From NCBI RefSeq assembly GCF_902652985.1, contig NC_047016.1:50592001-50656000 (forward strand): a stretch of DNA of 64,000 nt. Reading direction: 5' to 3'. A model generated the notes under the pieces. The model did not search any database. It had not been told where the DNA came from and saw only the letters and a program-made list of their open reading frames with translations. Position 1 is the stretch's first letter. The number at the start of each line of letters is the position of its first letter. Made by a program: the position numbers and the translations under genes. This stretch comes from Pecten maximus. Its lineage: Eukaryota. Below, in pieces: positions 50,620 to 62,157 of this stretch.

Positions 50620-51522
50620 AAGATTTCAAGATTTCAAGATTTTATTGGTTCACTCATGACATATATACATATGTAACAAGAGGTCATAAAGGGGAAAAAG
50701 AGAACTATTGGATGGACAAAGTAATCAATAGACAAATCAAGATAAATCATACAAATCATGAATTATTCTAATGTTCTTTACATACTTAAAAGCTTAATTA
50801 CTCTTTGGATAAAACGACTTACTTTACTTAACAAACCTGAATTACATATAGAGAACATTCCTTTCATTTTGTCACAATTAGGATTAATATAATAATATTT
50901 TGGTATATAAATTGCTCGTAGTGCTACAACAGAATCATTTTTACAGACATATAGATAGTGGTACTCATCACCAACACAGTTTGTACAGAGAGGACATAAC
51001 CTTTCCTCGCGAGGAACGTTATTCCATCTCCCTGTCTCTATAGGAAATTTTAAATTAGAAGTTCTAAATTTACACAAATATCTTCGGTCGTTATGATTCA
51101 ATTTCAATAGGTATGGTTCAAAATTAAACTGAGATTTATACAAAGAATATACTTGTCCTCGCGAGGAGCTATCAATTTCATTAAACCATTTTTGAACAAA
51201 TTGATCTTGAAGTCTTTGTTTAATGATTATTTTAAGATATTCTCTATTACTTGTACAAGAATGTTGAAGTAACCATATATCATTAAAACCAGTATTGTTC
51301 AATATGTCTCGTATATATAATAACCATCTAGAACTAAATACTGAATCCTGATGTAACTTGTACATTAATTTATACATTGAAGTAGATAATTTCATTTCGC
51401 CTGTTATGAGTTTATGCCAAAACATAATCATTCTTGTTTTTATTTCAATTTCTAAAGGGTACCTACCCAATTCACCATATACCATATAATTTGGCGTACT
51501 TGTGCGAACATTTAAAATGCGT
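50620..51522 (-). mobile_element. 3' fragment of a LINE (RTE-X-like) with (ATCTTGAA)n tail
   Basis: ORF 50778-51485 has VYGELGRYPL, IETGRW and CPLC...EYHYLYVC, followed by AATAAA and a repeat tail. A more decayed relative lies at ~49990-50180. Confidence 0.85.
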
Positions 51523-54500
51523 ACATGGCTTTCTTTGCTTGTTCCGATAATTTACTTCTGGCTTTTGTGAAAACACCATTATAATTTAACATTAATCCAA
51601 GATATGTATAGGAGTCTTGTATATCTAAACTCTCATTATTGAATAAAAAGTTGACGTTTCTTCGACTTTTTCTTTTTTCCAGAGTTGGTGTTCGGGGAAG
51701 ACCCCAGTGGGTGAGGGTGTGCTAGCCGCTAGGGTGCTTATCATATATGGTTGTTACATTTTAGTGATAAGTTGTAAAACTTAAGCTAATAAAAGAAACT
51801 AAAGAAACTGAAAATTGTTCCGTGTAATTTACTTACCGACCGAGATCATTCAAAAACGACTACCTGTATGTTATGCCGGAGTGATTAAATGCCATGGCTT
51901 CTAAATACACCATTTATCTATCAATTGGGCCTGATTATTAATTAAACCCATTATCGGGAGTGACAACACACGTCATCGTAATCAGTCAGGGCATTTGCGG
52001 GAGAGGTGTGAAATCTTGCCGCGGGGGTCACGACAAACACCTGTCATTTTTCATTTCATTTCAACAAATTTTATTGACAAGATGTTAATATCAATTGGAT
52101 CGAAAACAGGCAAGCCTACATAAATTCTTTCCATGGTGGATTGAGTGATCGAATATAACTGCATTTATGAATTCATATAGGATAAATGTTTTTTAAAACA
52201 AGCATCTTCTTGGACAGCCTATTGGCTGTACCAGATTAGTGGGGCAAGTTCCCTTAAAGATCTAATCAATGGGGCTGTTTCCTTTAATATTAATCAAGCA
52301 GCTTCAGGACCCAGATTTTGGGAGCATCTCAAACATCCCTATGACCTAGTTAACCACATTGTGTAGCTAGCCTGCAGCCATTTCAACAGGAACGACAACA
52401 TTTTCCCTCCCTCCCACCCAATTTACCAGATGGGTTACAGTAGTATATTTTGCTATGAACTTTAAATTTTGTTAACTGGTACCAACTTTCTGCCCAGAGT
52501 TCTCTACATTACAGACTTCAACATACCATGGCCACAGAGGGGCCTAGATGGCCACAGCCAGTAGGTACCTACTAGCTGCGATAACGTAGCTCTGGACGAC
52601 GGACGGACAATTTCTGACAGATGGTCGTCGTCAGAGCTACGATTCCCTCCCATTGCTCGTAATGTAGCAAAACAGTGAACCTCGAAAATGCTACAAATAG
52701 CGGATATCGTTTAACTTTGGAGTAATAGTTGGTATAATTAAACATTTCTAACACAATTTTACAATGTATTAGCCTACCGTCTAACCTGGAAATCTTTATT
52801 TCGCATATTCTGATATCATACTGCTTGGAGTTGTCTCCGTGATCCGCCATGTTACTTCTCGAAGAACTCTCGCGAGGATGCTGACCCAAATATGGAGCCC
52901 GTGACCATATATGGATGAAGCTACTACGATAAATAAATACATTATCAGAGATATTTAACCTCTGTTTTGTAACTCTTGTGAAGAAAGCGAATCTTACTTT
53001 GCGTAATTAAATAATTTCAGAATGAATTGACCTTCCTTACTGAGGTATATTACTCAGAATCTGTTTTTCTGTTGAAATCTTGCGGGAAACCTCATTAGCA
53101 TCAATTTATTTTGATTTCCTTATAAGGAAATTGACCTTTACACTTGTATCAAAGATAGCGGTATGTTTGAACTGATATCTCCGTGTGTCTTGCTCGTTTT
53201 GGATTTTACTATTTATTGTCAAACAATTGACGTAATGTGTAGGTTTGTGGCTTGAATATTAATAATAGATACCAGAATCATCAATTTACATGTGTTTTTT
53301 TATCCGAGAAATTTTTTACCACCGCTAATACTGCCCGATGTGAATAACATCGGAGCTTGCTACACTATCGGCAATGGGAGGGACTTCATACCCTGCCGGA
53401 CAGCAGTGTAGGCAGGGTATGAATATTCGTTCTAGGTACCTACCGGAGTCTAAAATTTACCTGTGTTTGACTTTTCTACACACAGGTATACCTGGTGTGC
53501 TTTGATATGTGAAGGATGACAAACTTTCACGAACCTTGAATTATGGGCTTGGACACCTTTTAACCAGGATGTGGCGTGACTTAAATAAATTACATAAATT
53601 CTGCAGGTAACCAGTTTACAATTTGACAGTGTTATTTGTGGTTCAAGAATATGAATACATTACATTGGTGTGTCGTGTCTGCTACAAGGAACATTTGCAC
53701 AGTTACAGACTGGATGGGTAGCTCTACATCTACGAAAAGGATATTGAATTTGATGGACCATGTGTATATGATGTATGTTGTGCATGCAAGTAATGGAACT
53801 GAACTTGACTTCCATAGATTGATTGACTTGCATAATTTATTACATTGTGGAAGAGTTAATGTTGAGTCACTGTGACTAGTGCCTATTTAACAGTATTATG
53901 TACATTCAATAATTGCCGATTCTTGTAATGCTATAACTTTGGATATTATATCTATGGTATGTATAGTTTTTGGATACTGGAGCTCGGTATGAGTGTTATT
54001 AATGTCAATTAACAATATACAGAGAATAAGTGCAAATTACCAAAGATAACACAATGAGGATGATCTAATTATGTGTAATTTGTCATAGCAGGATGGAGAT
54101 CCAGGTGGGTTGGCGGGATTCTGGGGATTCAGACTCGAAGGCGATCATTGTTGACTTCAACCCAGTTCTAGGTTAGGTCTCAAAAAAAAAAAAAAAAAAA
54201 TTGAATCCATGATTTACCATGGGGGGACAGGAATTTCAGTCCACTCCCGAGAAACCGGGTGGGGCGCCCTAGCTACTTCACTGGTGTTAATTACCACCGG
54301 GGAGTTTTTTGTCCACTGTAGAAAGGTTATATGTTATATAATTTACCCTAGGGACAGGAAATAGATACATACAATTTATATACATGTTATGGAGACCATG
54401 AAAAAATTACGGTATAAATTATTCTGGGTTGTTGTACGATTGCTCCCACTCAAAAGCTACTTTGGGGGGATGAGGCCAACCCGTGCTACCTGGGTGGCGC

Positions 54501-56714
54501 TGATGTGCCCTATATGTATTGGAGAATACAGGCGGTCAGTTTCTGAATTCTTAGGATCCTGCCAGACATCGCTATGGCCTAATATATAGCAATTTATGTA
54601 AATCTATGGATATCCTAATTTGGTAAGTGTAAAGGCGCTAGTCATAGATCAATTTTGTTCATTAATAAATAATAGTTTATCAGATTGAATTTCTTATTGT
54701 CTTGTTTTAATTACAATCTTATAAATTAATTGGTCTAAATATTTTGAAATGAAATACATAATATAAACAAAGGAATTAAACGGAAGTTACTATTTTTCTA
54801 GCAAAAGATAAACACAGAATATGTAACATAAAGCACGTAAATAGAAAAGCGGAAATGACTCTGACTCATCAGAGAGATTGGAACGTTTGAAGACACAGGT
54901 CCTTGTATGACAATAATATGTCAAAACTACTTTTTACTGCATATAAAATATTATATAACAGGGCAACAACTTAAGTGGAGTTTAATTAACGAAAAATCAA
55001 AAAAAAATGTTAACATTAAAAATAGGTACCAACGATTTGTGCATTAGTTAATATAATTTTAAAAAAATGAATAAAGACGTGTTTTTAACTATCTATGATT
55101 GGGGTCACGTATTGGATCGCCTATGCAGAACTCCAAATAAAAAATGACCATGTGATAGTATAGACAACGTGTTTATACTGTGCACATTCACGTGGAAGGC
55201 AATTTGTTACTGGCAAGACGAACACGTACACACGTGTGCGTATAATATTTTGCACGTTGTTGGGTAATAGAGAAGGAAGTGTTTGTTCATATATATAAAT
55301 ATAAGGACTCAGGACTTATTTATAAATATATTTATGGAGACTCATGATATAGGATTAAGTATTCAATATTTAGGTAAGTTTTATACGTATATTTATATTT
55401 AAATTATCTTTTGATTGACATTTACCTGCATAATGCATTGGACACACCGTACCTATGAGAGCATAGAGGCATTATACCGATGGAAAGTAAATAAACAATT
55501 AGATTTATAAAATAATCATAAAAATATGAAGATTAATGAACATGTTCTGTGGTAATTTCTTAATTAATATACATGCATATATTTAAGGAAAAATTCCTGG
55601 ATTTCAACCAGAAATTTAGTTGTTCACCATAAGCCATAGCTAGAACAAAGACGTACATTAATATTGAACATGGAGTAATACAGGATATATGAGACGATTA
55701 AATAGATATGGCATATGAGATTCATTAGATGATTTACATGCACTGTATATTTCCTTGATACATATACAGTCAAACCTCGTTAACTCGAAGTCGTCGGGAT
55801 CGTGAAAAAACTTCCGAGTTATCCGAGTCTTCCAGTAAACCGAGTTTCAAGGTAACACGCATCCTTAACAGAAACACGCCTATTTGATTTCAAATACTAA
55901 TTATAACAAAATCGTATTTATTATTTATGCTAGACACGACATTTCTAAAAAGTAAATTATATATGATACAATACTATCATATCGTTTTGAAATCAAGTAA
56001 GCCAGTATATTTGTGATTGGGAGTCGTGTCTGACATGCCATTTCTAAGTGAGTGAAAGACGAGAAGATTAATTGAGGCTTATGAAAATAAGCCAGGTTTG
56101 AATGAACAAACATAGATATACTTACCTGATTAAAATAGTTATATATATAGAAGTAGATGAAATCAGAAGTTATAGGATGTTTTAAAGATATAATGTAATG
56201 AATAACTTCTTTTAGATCTAGTATGTACACAATCAAGATACAATCCTAAATATATAGTAACCATCAGTAGAGCTCTCTGATTGGTTAAGAAAATTAGAGG
56301 GGACGCCATTGTGTTTACAGCTTCAGTAACAGAAAGACGTCTCAAATGTGTCTCAAAAAATCTTCATAATCTGGATCAAATCATAGCAATATAACATCTT
56401 AACGGTATTATTATGCAGATGGACGATATTCTGAACATGTCATAGGTTCTGTGAACGAGGATACTTCTCTAGTGTGTGAATCAAAAGGACTTGCAGTCAT
56501 AGACAACTTTCTAAACAATCCTTTGTTTACGTATGGAATATTGAACGTGAATTGTCAATAAGTCTGTCGGAACTCTAAAATAGTTAGGACCCTGGACTGA
56601 ACAGACGGAATTTATTTCCAAAGAGATGTGTTTTGTTTCCCTACCATCGCACTTAAATTGAGTTTGCGTTCGGTAGCCCAGGAAGGATTTTGAACTGTAG
56701 ATTTAGCTCCTATC

Positions 56715-58197
56715 ATGGCTAGCCGTAGATCCAGATCTACAACCAGACACAACCCATGGGACTCCTCAAACCCTGAAAATTGGACAGTGTCGCAATTAAG
56801 GACAGAATTGGAGAAAATCGGGATTATTGCGCCTAATACGGGCATCAACAAGACTGGTTTAAAAAACATGTATTTAGAAAACGCGGGATGCAGCGCGAGA
56901 AGATCAAACTCGATCATCACGAGTCAGACAAACTCCCAGCCCGAGAGCGTGGACGTGCACGAAAACGATGGTCTGATCGCTTACCCTATGCAGACTGAAC
57001 CCACGAACAATTATGGGCCCGACCCTGCAAGGACAGACGGCGGACTACATTGCGACGCGGAGGTGCGACCTGCTAACAGCACGCCAACAAGTCCGCCACT
57101 ATCGCGCAGTAATACCAGCCCACCGGAAACGGCGGATCAAACAGAAAACAACATGGCGGCGCCCAGTGCTCAAAATACGGACGTCATTCAAAGTATGCTG
57201 GCATCTATGCAGAGCATGCAACAGACCGTCATGGGTCTTCAACAAACCGTCATGACATTGATCGGGTCCCGAGACGACCAACGACGAATACAAGCGAGAC
57301 ATGACGCAACAGAATCCGGTTACAACCTATCAACAGCATACAATGTACGCCGCGATGAGACGTGATACAGAGGGAACCTCACAAACGGACAGAGTACAAG
57401 GTGGGTACACAGCTTGTGGCATATCATCTGAAAGTATTCCTCATATTGATATTGTGTCCGACGCAAATAAAAAGAACATTCTTGAGGGTCGTTACGTTAA
57501 TTTGGCCTCGCTCCTCATACCAAAATACGACACAGAACGATCAGAAGAACAACAACGTAGGGGCATATACATTAACATGAACGACAGTGAAGACCAGAGA
57601 CTAAACAAATCACTGACAATTTCGGAATTTATTACTGCTTTTGGCAAGTTTAAACGGATAATGTGTGGGAAATGCCCAGAAAGAAGAGGAGAGCTCGAGA
57701 TCTACGAGGCCCACATCATAGAAATATCCAACATATATGGCCAGAAATTCTATGACTATCATTGCCAGTTTGCCCTAAAAGCAGCCACAGCACTGAGGGA
57801 TAATAACCAGAAAGTTAATTGGGGCCTGAAAGATAATGGACTCCTGAGCATGGTGGTTGGTAACGCTAAAGTGAACGCATGTCAGTTATGTTCGTCCACA
57901 ACTCACTCCACATCATTCTGTTCCCAACAAAAGAATAGGCGGCCAGGGAAAAACTCACAGCAACAATATAACGGCTCACCACAAGGCTCGAACTCGAAGG
58001 ACACGGACAAATATGGACGTCCAAAAATAAAAATAGATGGAGTTGAAGTTTGCAATAACTTCAATGATGGGAAAAGCCACTATGATACAGGATGTCATTT
58101 CAAACACATCTGCCACACATGTAAAGCTACCAGCCATGGAGCCAAGTCGTGCCGTAAGAACTTAAATGCAAGATCCCGCAGTGACGAGGCCCAATGA
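56715..58197 (+). pseudogene. gag-like ORF1 (frameshifted) with N-terminal SAP/HeH-like helix pair and C-terminal zinc fingers
   Basis: NWTVSQLRTEL, YVNLASLL, FYDYHCQF, CQLC..H..C and CNNFN...C...HIC..C...H...C motifs. Deleting 57342-57348 joins the two ORFs. Confidence 0.8.
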
Positions 58198-58212
58198 CTA
58201 CCCCATCAACCA

Positions 58213-59858
58213 GTGGAGAAAGACAACTCCAGCAAAGCCACAACACCTATAAATATAGACAGATTGAGAAAGGAACTTGTTGAACATCCGGATCGCGAAT
58301 TTGTCAATTATTTATGTGACGGACTGACATATGGTTTCGACACAATGATATCAAATATAGAACTGACAACCAAAGTATGCAAGAACCTGAGGTCAGCTAT
58401 AAATGATGATATGACTGTGGACAAACTCGTAGAGAGCGAAGTAAGCAAAGGATTTCTGTGCGGACCATACAAACAATTGCATTTTCACTCTTGTAGAGTC
58501 AGTCCCATCGGTGTCTCCTATGGAAAGTATTCAGGGAAACCAAGGCTCATAGTAGACCTTTCGTCACCACATCAGGATGAACAACACCCTAGTGTCAACG
58601 ACTTAATTAGCAAAGAAGAATGTTCCTTATCATATGTCCGTATTGATGACGCAATAAATCTTATCCAACAACTCGGAAATGATACTACAATGTGCAAAAC
58701 AGATATATCGGACGCATTTAAGTTAATGCCTATACATCCATTACAGTGGCACTTGTACTGTATAGGTTGGAAGGGCAGCTTCTACTACTATACTAAGCTA
58801 GCTTTTGGGTGCCGGTCCAGCCCAAGGTTTTTGACAATCTTTCAACAGCCATATGCTGGATTGCTAGAAACAATTATGGCATTGACCATATTTTACATCT
58901 GTTGGATGATTTCATCACATTTGAAGAACCAGGAAAATGTGGTGACAGAAATATGTCTATGTTGTATGTCATCTTCAATGGCCTAAATATACCGATGGCT
59001 CTACATAAGACCTGCGGACCAAACACAGTGATATAATACCTAGGTATCATTCTGGACTCTCATAAAATGGAAGCTAGACTGCCGATAGACAAACTTCAGC
59101 GAGATACAGAGATACTCCGATCATTTCAGAACCGTCAGTCGTGTACAAAGAGAGAACTTCTTCAACTATTAGGTCATTTAAATTTTGCCAGTAAAGTTAT
59201 TATCCCAGGACGCAGTTTCGTATCACACATCATTAAGTTATCGACTACTGTGAAAGCCCTACACCACCATGTCAAACTGAATAGTGAATGTAGGGAGGAC
59301 ATTAGAATGTGGTTAACTTTTCTGCAATACTGGAACGGAGTAGGCATTTTTTATGATCTACAGATAACTACAACAGAGGACATCAAGTTGTACACAGATG
59401 CGTCTGGAACTAGAGGATTCGGGGGCTACCTACAGGGACAGTGGTTCTCCCAGGCATGGCCACCGAATATGCAGGATTATGTTCATAGCACGGACGAGAT
59501 ATCCATAGCTTTCAAGGAGTTGTACCCCATAGTCGTGGCAGCTATGATATGGGGACACAGATGGAAAGGCTTGCGAATCATATTTATGTGTGATAATATC
59601 GCGACCGTTGCCATTTTACATAAAGGCCGCTCGAAATCGGCGCATATCATGCCACTTATGAGGCGTCTTACTATGTGCGCAGCTAGAAATAACTTTGTGA
59701 TTATGGCTACACACGTACCTGGCAAACTTAATTTGATAGCTGACTCTCTGTCTCGTTTACAGATGGCACGGTTCCGCACACTAGCCCCAGAAGCAGACTA
59801 CATTCCTTGCCAAGTGCCACATCCGAAGGTCATCTTGTGGAACTCAGAAGAACCGTAG
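58213..59858 (+). pseudogene. RT-RNase H ORF, disrupted by a frameshift (~58820) and a stop (59034-59036)
   Basis: RLIVDLS, KTDISDAF, LAFGCRSSP, HLLDDF, YTDASG, KELYPI, CDN and ADSLSR motifs. Confidence 0.9.
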
Positions 59859-60814
59859 ACGGCTTGTGGGAGAATGCTATAGCCCCAAGTACAAGGCAAA
59901 CATACAGCACAGGTTTCAAAACCTTTCTTCAATTCCTCCTGATGTCAGGTATTATGGCTTGTGTGAACTACAGTGACATGTCTGTCACAGAGGATATGTT
60001 GATCTATTTTGTGGCCCACTGCCACAATAGCAACCTCTCTTACGCAACCATCAAGCTATACCTATGTGGAATTAGATTTATGTGCTTACAGAAAGACATA
60101 CCTTACCCTAGTAATGCTAATCTAGCCTGTATGCAGGCCGTCCTTGGAGGGGTGAAACGTGGGCGCGTGAAAACAGTTAAACCAAGATATCCAATTACAT
60201 TTAACATTCTAAGAAATATATGTGGTTATTTGCGTAAGAACTCGAACTCCTTTTGTGACCTCATGTTAGAAACTGCTTGTACAATAGCCTTTTGGGGGTT
60301 TTTGAGATGTGGCGAGTTTACGGTGAAATCCAATTTTGACTCTAACGACAATCTTTGTGTAGAGGACATGACAATCGCTAACGACTATGTACTTCTATAT
60401 CTGAAAAAGTCGAAAACGGATCCTTTCAGAGAAGGAATCATGTTGAAGCTCTTTAAAACGAACAAATTTGTATGCCCACATTGTGTATGTAGCAAGTATA
60501 TGGAAAGTCGCCAACGGCAGACGCCCTCCCCAAAAGACCCATTATTTGTGACAGTCGACGGACAACCCTTGACTAGAAAAGTTTTCATTACTAAACTGCG
60601 GCATGTACTGGAATGCTTAAATATAAACTCTGACTTGTACAATGGGCACTCCTTCCGAATAGGAGCGGCCACATCTGCAGCAGCAGTGCATATCGAGGAC
60701 CATCTTATCAAAGTGCTGGGTAGGTGGTCCTCTGACGCATATTGCAGGTACATACGAACACCACAATCCACGATCAGGGACGCTCAAATTGCACTAACTG
60801 CTACGTATCCATAG
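59807..60814 (+). CDS. Tyrosine recombinase (intact, 335 aa)
   Basis: FLRCGEF, SKTD, GHSFRIGAA, GRWSS and YCRYIR give the R-K-H-R-W-Y catalytic set. Confidence 0.93.
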   Translation: MPSATSEGHLVELRRTVDGLWENAIAPSTRQTYSTGFKTFLQFLLMSGIMACVNYSDMSVTEDMLIYFVAHCHNSNLSYATIKLYLCGIRFMCLQKDIPYPSNANLACMQAVLGGVKRGRVKTVKPRYPITFNILRNICGYLRKNSNSFCDLMLETACTIAFWGFLRCGEFTVKSNFDSNDNLCVEDMTIANDYVLLYLKKSKTDPFREGIMLKLFKTNKFVCPHCVCSKYMESRQRQTPSPKDPLFVTVDGQPLTRKVFITKLRHVLECLNINSDLYNGHSFRIGAATSAAAVHIEDHLIKVLGRWSSDAYCRYIRTPQSTIRDAQIALTATYP

Positions 60815-62157
60815 AACCGTGTTTTGGTCGACACAAAAAATTAAGTTTTTACAAACATTATTGTGGACGAGTACAGGCTACACTTAGATTCCTACTATAT
60901 TATGTATTTGCGTGTAGGACTATTTGATGGTGCAGTACAAATGTATATACAAATATATTTTATAATCTTAACATTATAATAGCATTTTTGGGGTACTCAG
61001 CTAAATCATTTACATGACATATCCGAGTTATGGCCTTGTTTTCATTCGGATACTAAGAGGGATGGCTATTCCTCATTAAAACTTTCCCAACAATACTCGT
61101 ATATTATTTATAATTTGATATTAGAGGCATTTTATAAGCTGTATGTCTCATAGCTACCCTGCCTACATCTGGTCCCAATGTGCCTGCCAGTCTGAGTAGA
61201 AGGGGTAGGGACTAATTATATAATGATAATTCAGGCTAAGGTGTTGTTCCTCCTCTGGATTAGGTTTGCAATACTATGAACGTAGTAATCTGTCACAACA
61301 AGTTTGTACAGCTACGGATCATATATTTGCATTTGTACGTAATATTGTAGTAATCTGTCGCATGGGAAACCTGCACAGCTACAATTAAATCTGTCAGCCA
61401 TATTGCAGTACTGCGGTAATCTGTCGCCGCCAGTGTTGAATTATCCGAGTTCGAATTATCCGAGTTTTTATTACTAAGAAAAAGAAGGATTTTTGCCGGG
61501 ACCGGAGTAATACTTCGAGTTGAACGGGGTTTTCGAGTTATTCGAGTTCGAGTTAACGAAGTTCGACTCTATATGCATGTACATTATACATGCGAGTGCA
61601 TAAATATATATATACATCTGTATATATATTTGATATACATGTTTACTGCTTTGGAAAGAAGGGTTCAAGTTAACTATGTTATAAAGTATAATGTTATGAA
61701 AATATGATATGAATTTTGGTCACAATAAGACAGTCGTGTTATTTTAAAATTCTTGTCAATGAAGACAATGTGTAAACACGCAAATGAAGTTATTTTTACT
61801 ATGTAAGTATCATCACACATTTGACATGTATTACCCATCTGATGTAAGAGAGCCATTATCTCTTTAATTAAACACCTGTCCAGTGGTCAGTACAGGTAAA
61901 CCTTTTTGGTTAGAATCATGAGATGTCAATTACCTATAATATCATAGCTAACGGGCCATGAAAAAAGTTCGATGTATGATTCGAATAATGAATAGGTTCG
62001 TAAGTAGCGTTATATAGTGAGGAAATCCGGGACCAAGCAAAAAGTTCGATACAGCGAGAAATTCTAATCAACGAAGTTCGAATAATCGAGGTTTGACTGT
62101 AAGTTAAGAGCATTCAAAGCTGAATTCATTAATGAGATATATACACATCAAGTGTAA

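Follow-up and report, generated by a model that had tools for sequence, protein, structure and literature searches.

Elements of the Ngaro superfamily (order DIRS) have been described with the order A1-gag-RT/RH-YR-B1-A2-B2, without a methyltransferase and with solo A-B derivatives (available portions of PMC3783388, PMC8547959 and 10.1101/2021.08.05.455354). DIRS-1, which carries inverted repeats, has an internal complementary region (ICR) and a proposed 3' priming hairpin, and the same source, in its available part, states that it is unknown how elements of the DIRS order single out their RNA and how their reverse transcription is primed (PMC7192593). The core packaging signal of MoMuLV contains clustered UCUG elements bound by the zinc knuckle of Gag (PMC3247676, available text), and the hepadnavirus epsilon signal is a bipartite stem-loop with a central bulge (PMC8903280, available text). 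The literature that we searched contained no account of hairpin arrays or of a long-range frame such as those reported here; the original Ngaro descriptions and Repbase entries lay outside this search and may mention some of the motifs.

We analysed a window of 64,000 nt from Pecten maximus (NC_047016.1, positions 50,592,001 to 50,656,000), in which a first-pass annotation had reported repeated, covarying bulged hairpins at the 3' end of a YR retrotransposon. The element and its insertion site are laid out as follows, in window positions.

55764..56069, no strand assigned: left part of a MITE-like host (about 1.15 kb, multi-copy), in which the retrotransposon is inserted at GATTAA
56072..56367, + strand: first split direct repeat (A1), with the same sequence as the A2 of intact siblings
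56694..58197, + strand: gag-like ORF, in two frames in the window copy, with a C-terminal CCHC, CCCH, CCHC zinc-finger pattern
58198..59858, + strand: region coding for RT/RNase H, interrupted by a frame change around 58990-59040
59744..60814, + strand: tyrosine recombinase (YR) ORF of 356 aa, overlapping the RT/RNase H region
61033..61434, + strand: truncated B1 repeat, which in intact copies is about 720 nt long
61437..61573, no strand assigned: right end of the MITE-like host, starting at 61437

By structural definition this is a Ngaro-type (split-direct-repeat) YR retrotransposon, our own-genome YR tree holding no reference elements. The RT matched RVT_1 with an E value of 0.003 and the YR also gave a match, both below the Pfam cut-off; the catalytic motifs of the YR are conserved in the alignment. 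ORF layout and a Pfam scan revealed no methyltransferase, protease or DDE integrase in the element, and its RT/RNase H region leaves no room for a methyltransferase. Gag ends in CCHC-CCCH-CCHC fingers in 14 Gag ORFs (that of the window and those of 13 of 19 upstream loci); zf-CCCH scored above the Pfam cut-off in two of the seven Gags scanned, the window's own Gag giving no match. Siblings of 93-99% identity have the order A1-ORFs-B1-A2-spacer-B2. In one of them (L092) we found B1-A2-spacer-B2 (724 nt, 99.7%), with an A2 matching the A1 of L091 and of the window copy. A deletion at 61434, inside hairpin 3, removed the 3' part of the window copy, and about 600 nt of the MITE-like host are missing along with it. 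Elsewhere in the window, an ORF fragment (50778-51551, - strand) looks by eye like the C-terminal end of a non-LTR retrotransposon protein and had no Pfam match.

The following structures were found in B1.

61154..61208, + strand: stem CTACCCT/AGGGGTAG, its inner part nearly invariant and common to the sister family, with a short deletion in the window copy
61242..61265, + strand: 5' arm of a long stem enclosing the array, whose 3' arm is lost in the window copy
61281..61316, + strand: hairpin H1 with TAAT bulge
61344..61385, + strand: hairpin H2 with TAAT bulge and GAAA loop
61386..61395, + strand: TAAT-CTG module in a damaged copy on the 3' strand, by which H2 is extended
61405..61434, + strand: 5' half of hairpin H3 with a GCAG extension, cut by the deletion

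H1 and H2 lay where they had been annotated and folded as drawn, together making up the minimum-energy fold of the annotated stretch. Fold stability was unremarkable for this stretch overall (z -0.99), higher for H1 alone (z -1.8) and H2 (z -3.5), and reached z -4.3 and -6.3 for the intact enclosed array with its closing stem in two families. Two partial copies had also been noted downstream. AATCTGTC is indeed present at 61388 and 61418; the copy placed at 61417 is the 5' half of a full third hairpin, and the one at 61388 is a damaged bulge module of the 3' strand. In intact siblings each B has four hairpins, accompanied by copies of the bulge module in flipped strand orientation, all within the long closing stem, and a strand-flipped copy is retained in two families. 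The stem at 61154-61208 may form an inner pseudoknot, and it resembles one copy of the motif of the L127 family.

A two-arm pattern of the hairpin had 90 matches in the same genome (G000, 918 Mb), as against 0 for the reversed control, an excess over chance. All 90 were in B repeats of the window family or a sister family, or in two arrays grown in B remnants. The motif being part of an unrelated flanking repeat, the alternative named in the first-pass annotation, does not apply, since the MITE-like host begins at 61437 and both arrays lie within B remnants. These two arrays are minisatellites with 62- and 68-nt units, each derived from one TAAT hairpin in a dead B repeat (G000:C2:47526850-47535460 and G000:C16:21446480-21450590); hairpin arrays are thus slippage-prone, two dead copies having expanded to kilobase size. 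A model (R1) run on 69 sources found the TAAT type in the window family only, with the two window hairpins as the only significant matches; over the rest of the genome, other families with the TAAT motif are excluded by the exact two-arm pattern alone.

Covariation was assessed on nine distinct hairpins, namely four from the window family, three from the sister family, one older copy and one minisatellite unit. Eight of 14 pairs had changes on both sides, and none of 500 shuffles came up to the real set in percentage paired, number of pairs, number of cells or score (416 of 500 did so for a fifth measure), in a control that ignores the relatedness of the hairpins. The orthologous H1 of the sister family shows adjacent double changes. 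The stems therefore vary and stay paired, as had been claimed, and the outcome that the first-pass annotation named as refuting, a lack of significant covariation across family members, is not what we observed. The nearly invariant core is G-(T)AAT-CTG with CAG-C: the unpaired bulge bases are constant, while paired stems and loops turn over. Constancy of the bulges had been put too broadly, since TAAT is nearly invariant but other copies have A, G or T in place of the single C, lack this bulge altogether or carry it on the 3' side. Likewise, the GNRA loop (GAAA) is real in H2 and found in only one of the nine hairpins. Covariation and position in the B repeat both support a selected single-strand structure belonging to the YR element, and we conclude that the hairpins are a selected, family-specific array in B of a Ngaro-type retrotransposon. 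Rfam covariance models, run on 7 kb of the window and on 14 intact loci (67.5 kb), gave only chance matches far below gathering scores.

We then looked at other elements. A YR search gave 151 matches, and 40 representatives were examined. By eye, we inspected 20 own-genome families that belong to the hydrolase-less group: 15 had at least three copies of a hairpin of their own, two had two copies, and none was seen in three. The array is located in B or in the A2-B2 spacer. In L108, L109 and L115 the motif is amplified in the spacer rather than in B, so that only a transcript reading through B1 contains it. The motifs differ among families, and families related on the YR tree (own-genome YRs only) have similar ones; this agreement is shared descent and not proof of co-evolution. 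In L102/L119, two conserved half-sites stay paired, with stem-forming inserts of about 10-70 nt between them. Double-stranded transcription-factor sites were rejected because they would not tolerate such variation in half-site spacing (about 10 to 70 nt). Hairpins of the L112/L113 type, a third motif type, showed weaker covariation (1 of 500 shuffles for score, 12 of 500 for pairs, relatedness again being ignored). Copy number in B arrays ranged from 0 to 9, one family having young duplicates that are nearly identical. Arrays are present as well in the metagenome relatives L143 and L145/L146; in compact relatives on metagenome contigs the B repeats are short and hold one or two hairpins. Viral contigs gave no match with the TAAT motif or the YR alignment. 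In L103 (G000:C3891), a 7-bp hairpin with two G-U pairs is repeated in tandem more than 30 times immediately behind the YR. The YR group of the window element is without an SGNH hydrolase ORF, unlike a second YR group in the same genome (L120-L125, L135), in which an SGNH-hydrolase-like ORF, identified by eye, comes after the YR and the B boundary is also at TGG.

Arrays also occur in a young, non-autonomous passenger element (L329-L332, e.g. G000:C19:11366870-11372810) of 5.9 kb, with no ORF of more than 200 aa, present in at least 30 places. Four copies were compared: three pairwise comparisons gave 99.8% identity, and the fourth copy was 97-99% identical in two pieces. The passenger keeps the split repeats and alpha (see below) and has 27 copies of the L113-family motif in its body, though its B repeat is closest to that of the L114 family.

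Comparison of families also disclosed a long-range frame around the array, made of alpha, beta (TGG), gamma, alpha' and beta' (GCCAAA). Three of its parts in the window copy are listed here.

60985..61001, + strand: alpha (T-run, G-run, CTCA), which covaries with gamma and alpha' and is the start of 5'-truncated copies
61028..61035, + strand: beta (TGG), with the B1/B2 identity boundary at 61033
61086..61094, + strand: gamma (C-run plus A-run), the local partner of alpha

This frame is visible only by comparing families, whole-domain energies being uninformative. To 17 of 18 own-genome families, retrieved by a frame finder, we added three clear metagenome cases to make a set of 20; a crude finder had accepted 32 of 80 metagenome loci, and the three were chosen among these. 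Cognate duplexes were more stable than non-cognate ones both for alpha:gamma (-12.7 vs -9.9 kcal/mol) and for alpha:alpha' (-19.8 vs -14.9 kcal/mol; p 1e-5 in each case), in a test that G/C-run length inflates, as the alpha-down:gamma control was itself above chance (p 4e-4); another control was null (p 0.43). Beta and beta' showed no covariation over the 20 families (p 0.76), both being merely invariant. Since gamma and alpha' use the same G-run of alpha, the two partners must alternate or meet at a junction; with no beta:beta' covariation, a three-strand junction is a proposal. Alpha' is 150-350 nt inside B. B2 is without alpha and beta, and the spacer holds a near-perfect complement of alpha' (alpha2) in seven of nine families (p 2e-5), failing in L101 and L104.

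The frame coincides with boundaries of the element. In 27 of 29 repeats a TGG was located between -6 and +7 relative to the B1/B2 boundary, as compared with 7 expected, several of these rows being close kin. Eight of ten 5'-truncated copies begin within -5 to +5 of the alpha G-run (P about 7e-11 if starts were uniform); the set (L008, L009, L093, L250, L273 and L311-L314, with L008/L009 counted once) is made of short or internally deleted copies of four families. Most of them end at the B end, and several are in tandem-repeat flanks with short duplications, looking as if they were cDNA pieces captured at breaks. A C-rich tract (CCACCACC or CCCACCCACCC type, e.g. in L092 and L152; G-rich on the other strand) directly follows the A2 boundary in 17 of the 22 listed A1/A2 matches; among the misses, three are flanking repeats wrongly called A. 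At the 5' boundary of B2 the preceding base is often A in many families, giving AG in B2 as against TG in B1; this is splice-acceptor-like, with no splice joint seen. The window family and L100 have the same B ends, A starts and TGG boundary, yet different bulges. Sibling copies end at the B end (TTTAAA), and the element ends (B end/A start) are 230-460 nt from the hairpins, on account of which we rejected a recombination site within the hairpins. In ssDNA sites of the integron attC type, recombination takes place within a bulged hairpin; here copies end at the B end instead.

As to the strand on which the fold is read, in 16 of 20 families the sense strand had the larger number of confident pairs, and G-U pairs amounted to 115 of 1391 (sense) vs 72 of 1141 (antisense). 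Whole-domain energy favoured the sense strand in only 10 of 20 families, the alpha:gamma duplex was better on the antisense strand in 13 vs 4, and both strands folded equally well as DNA. A sense-strand (RNA) reading is thus only modestly supported by these predictions. Eight of 24 listed sequencing runs were examined, all as contigs, from which strand, starts and level are not readable; seven of these were only guessed to be RNA. Contigs cover B, A2 and the spacer, and those of RNA-type runs cross alpha. No splice joint or poly(A) end was present in the contigs of the eight runs.

The explanation that best fits these data, which we hold to be about as probable as not, is that the array is a set of multivalent docking sites on the element RNA for the element's own zinc-finger Gag, by which the transcript would be selected in cis for packaging. 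We infer three things here, i.e. that the structure is read at the RNA level, that Gag (not RT or a host protein) is the reader, and that packaging is the purpose. The Gag zinc fingers of a family would bind its own hairpin array, and each family could in this way pick out the full-length transcript of its own element to be packaged and reverse-transcribed; this transcript, with B twice and the spacer, would offer the most docking sites. The array lies within the long-range frame, with alpha paired to gamma or alpha', and alpha' to a second partner in the spacer. This frame shows covariation among families, and its position matches both the B boundary and cDNA-like ends; it is the frame, rather than the hairpins, that is the likely candidate for a replication signal and may mark the start of copying. 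More tentatively, and with the balance of our opinion against it, frame and docking array might together be the missing replication origin of split-direct-repeat YR retrotransposons, in the form of a switchable three-strand junction. B1 would hold the whole of this origin, and B2 a reduced form with a single perfect helix. The origin would recruit Gag/RT via the family-specific hairpins, make second-strand synthesis begin at the beta TGG and so set the B boundary, and leave intermediates ending at alpha, with the C-rich tract fixing the A boundary.

Other readings have to be weighed against docking by Gag. The array could bind a host RNA-binding protein involved in export, germ-line localisation or stability, and bulged hairpins in multiple, position-independent copies are typical of localisation signals. 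Families residing in one genome have unrelated motifs, which is better explained by element-encoded readers than by one host protein, and makes this reading improbable. About as improbable, in our estimation, is that the array is structural filler between gamma and alpha', the motif itself not being read. Any hairpin might then be duplicated, as paired inserts keep the frame closed, and the range of 0-9 copies in B, the near-identical young duplicates and the growth of minisatellites in dead copies would follow naturally. Filler does not account for bulge bases that are invariant while stems and loops turn over, for the strand-flipped module kept in two families, or for motifs amplified outside the frame too. 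A self-cleaving ribozyme, formed by the hairpins or by the frame, is very unlikely. Alpha, beta, hairpin, gamma, variable insert and beta' follow one another in an order reminiscent of the HDV-type topology, and truncated copies begin at alpha; still, Rfam gave no match, the starts are spread over -5 to +5, and RNA-type contigs run across alpha. HDV-like ribozymes have a P3 stem with an L3 loop, P1.1 directly after P2, and a conserved catalytic C in J4/2. Here the beta-gamma linker is 6-9 nt and hairpinless in L143, L146 and L184, leaving no room for P3/L3 in these three relatives, and has long hairpins elsewhere; the linker before beta' varies in length and sequence over the 20 families, with no fixed catalytic C.

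Two further readings place the hairpins in replication itself. Single-stranded cDNA might carry the same fold, with RT, Gag or YR as its reader, at the stage of second-strand synthesis or of circle formation. The intermediates of DIRS-1 include linear cDNA that is single-stranded (PMC7192593, available part), the two strands fold equally well as DNA, and antisense alpha:gamma duplexes are no worse than sense ones; the sense-strand excess of confident and G-U pairs and the distance of 230-460 nt between the hairpins and the element ends at the B end/A start speak against it, and we consider it unlikely. Alternatively, each hairpin could act as an origin in the manner of epsilon, its bulge being the template for a primer linked to protein, given the two stems round a central bulge, as in the hepadnavirus signal (PMC8903280, available text), and a DIRS primer that is stated to be unknown (PMC7192593, available part). 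The many copies per element argue against this, as does the pair formed by the window family and L100, in which bulges differ between identical ends and so do not covary with them; we give it hardly any credence. Of the functions listed in the first-pass annotation, packaging-type recognition fits best, and ribozyme and bulge-templated priming roles of the hairpins were not borne out. The arrays of about 20 co-resident families, each with its own motif, offer a ready way of testing cognate vs non-cognate Gag-RNA recognition. The conserved frame makes the open question of replication testable as well, as it gives exact spots at which to look for cDNA ends: alpha, the beta TGG and the C-rich tract after A2.

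The window element and its siblings share with Ngaro elements the split-repeat layout without a methyltransferase. In the available portions of the published descriptions, repeats are given by length and identity only, with no hairpin arrays, long-range frame or boundary motifs (PMC3783388, PMC8547959, 10.1101/2021.08.05.455354). As in DIRS-1, an internal sequence is complementary to a terminal-repeat sequence (here alpha2 in the spacer and alpha'), but the ICR pairs with the element ends whereas alpha' sits 150-350 nt inside B (PMC7192593, available part). The hairpins resemble epsilon in having two stems round a central bulge (PMC8903280, available text). Epsilon is a single 5'-proximal copy with a bulge matching a 3' acceptor, whereas here there are four copies per B, 3'-located, with a bulge unlike the element ends. 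Compared with the MoMuLV signal, the array is 3'-located, occurs twice per full-length RNA and has family-specific motifs. The MoMuLV UCUG is bound unpaired while the CUG here is predicted to be paired, and in the closest family the bulge differs and there is no UCUG (PMC3247676, available text). What the two have in common, as far as the available text of that paper goes, is several short stem-loop motifs, a zinc-knuckle Gag and alternative pairings (PMC3247676).
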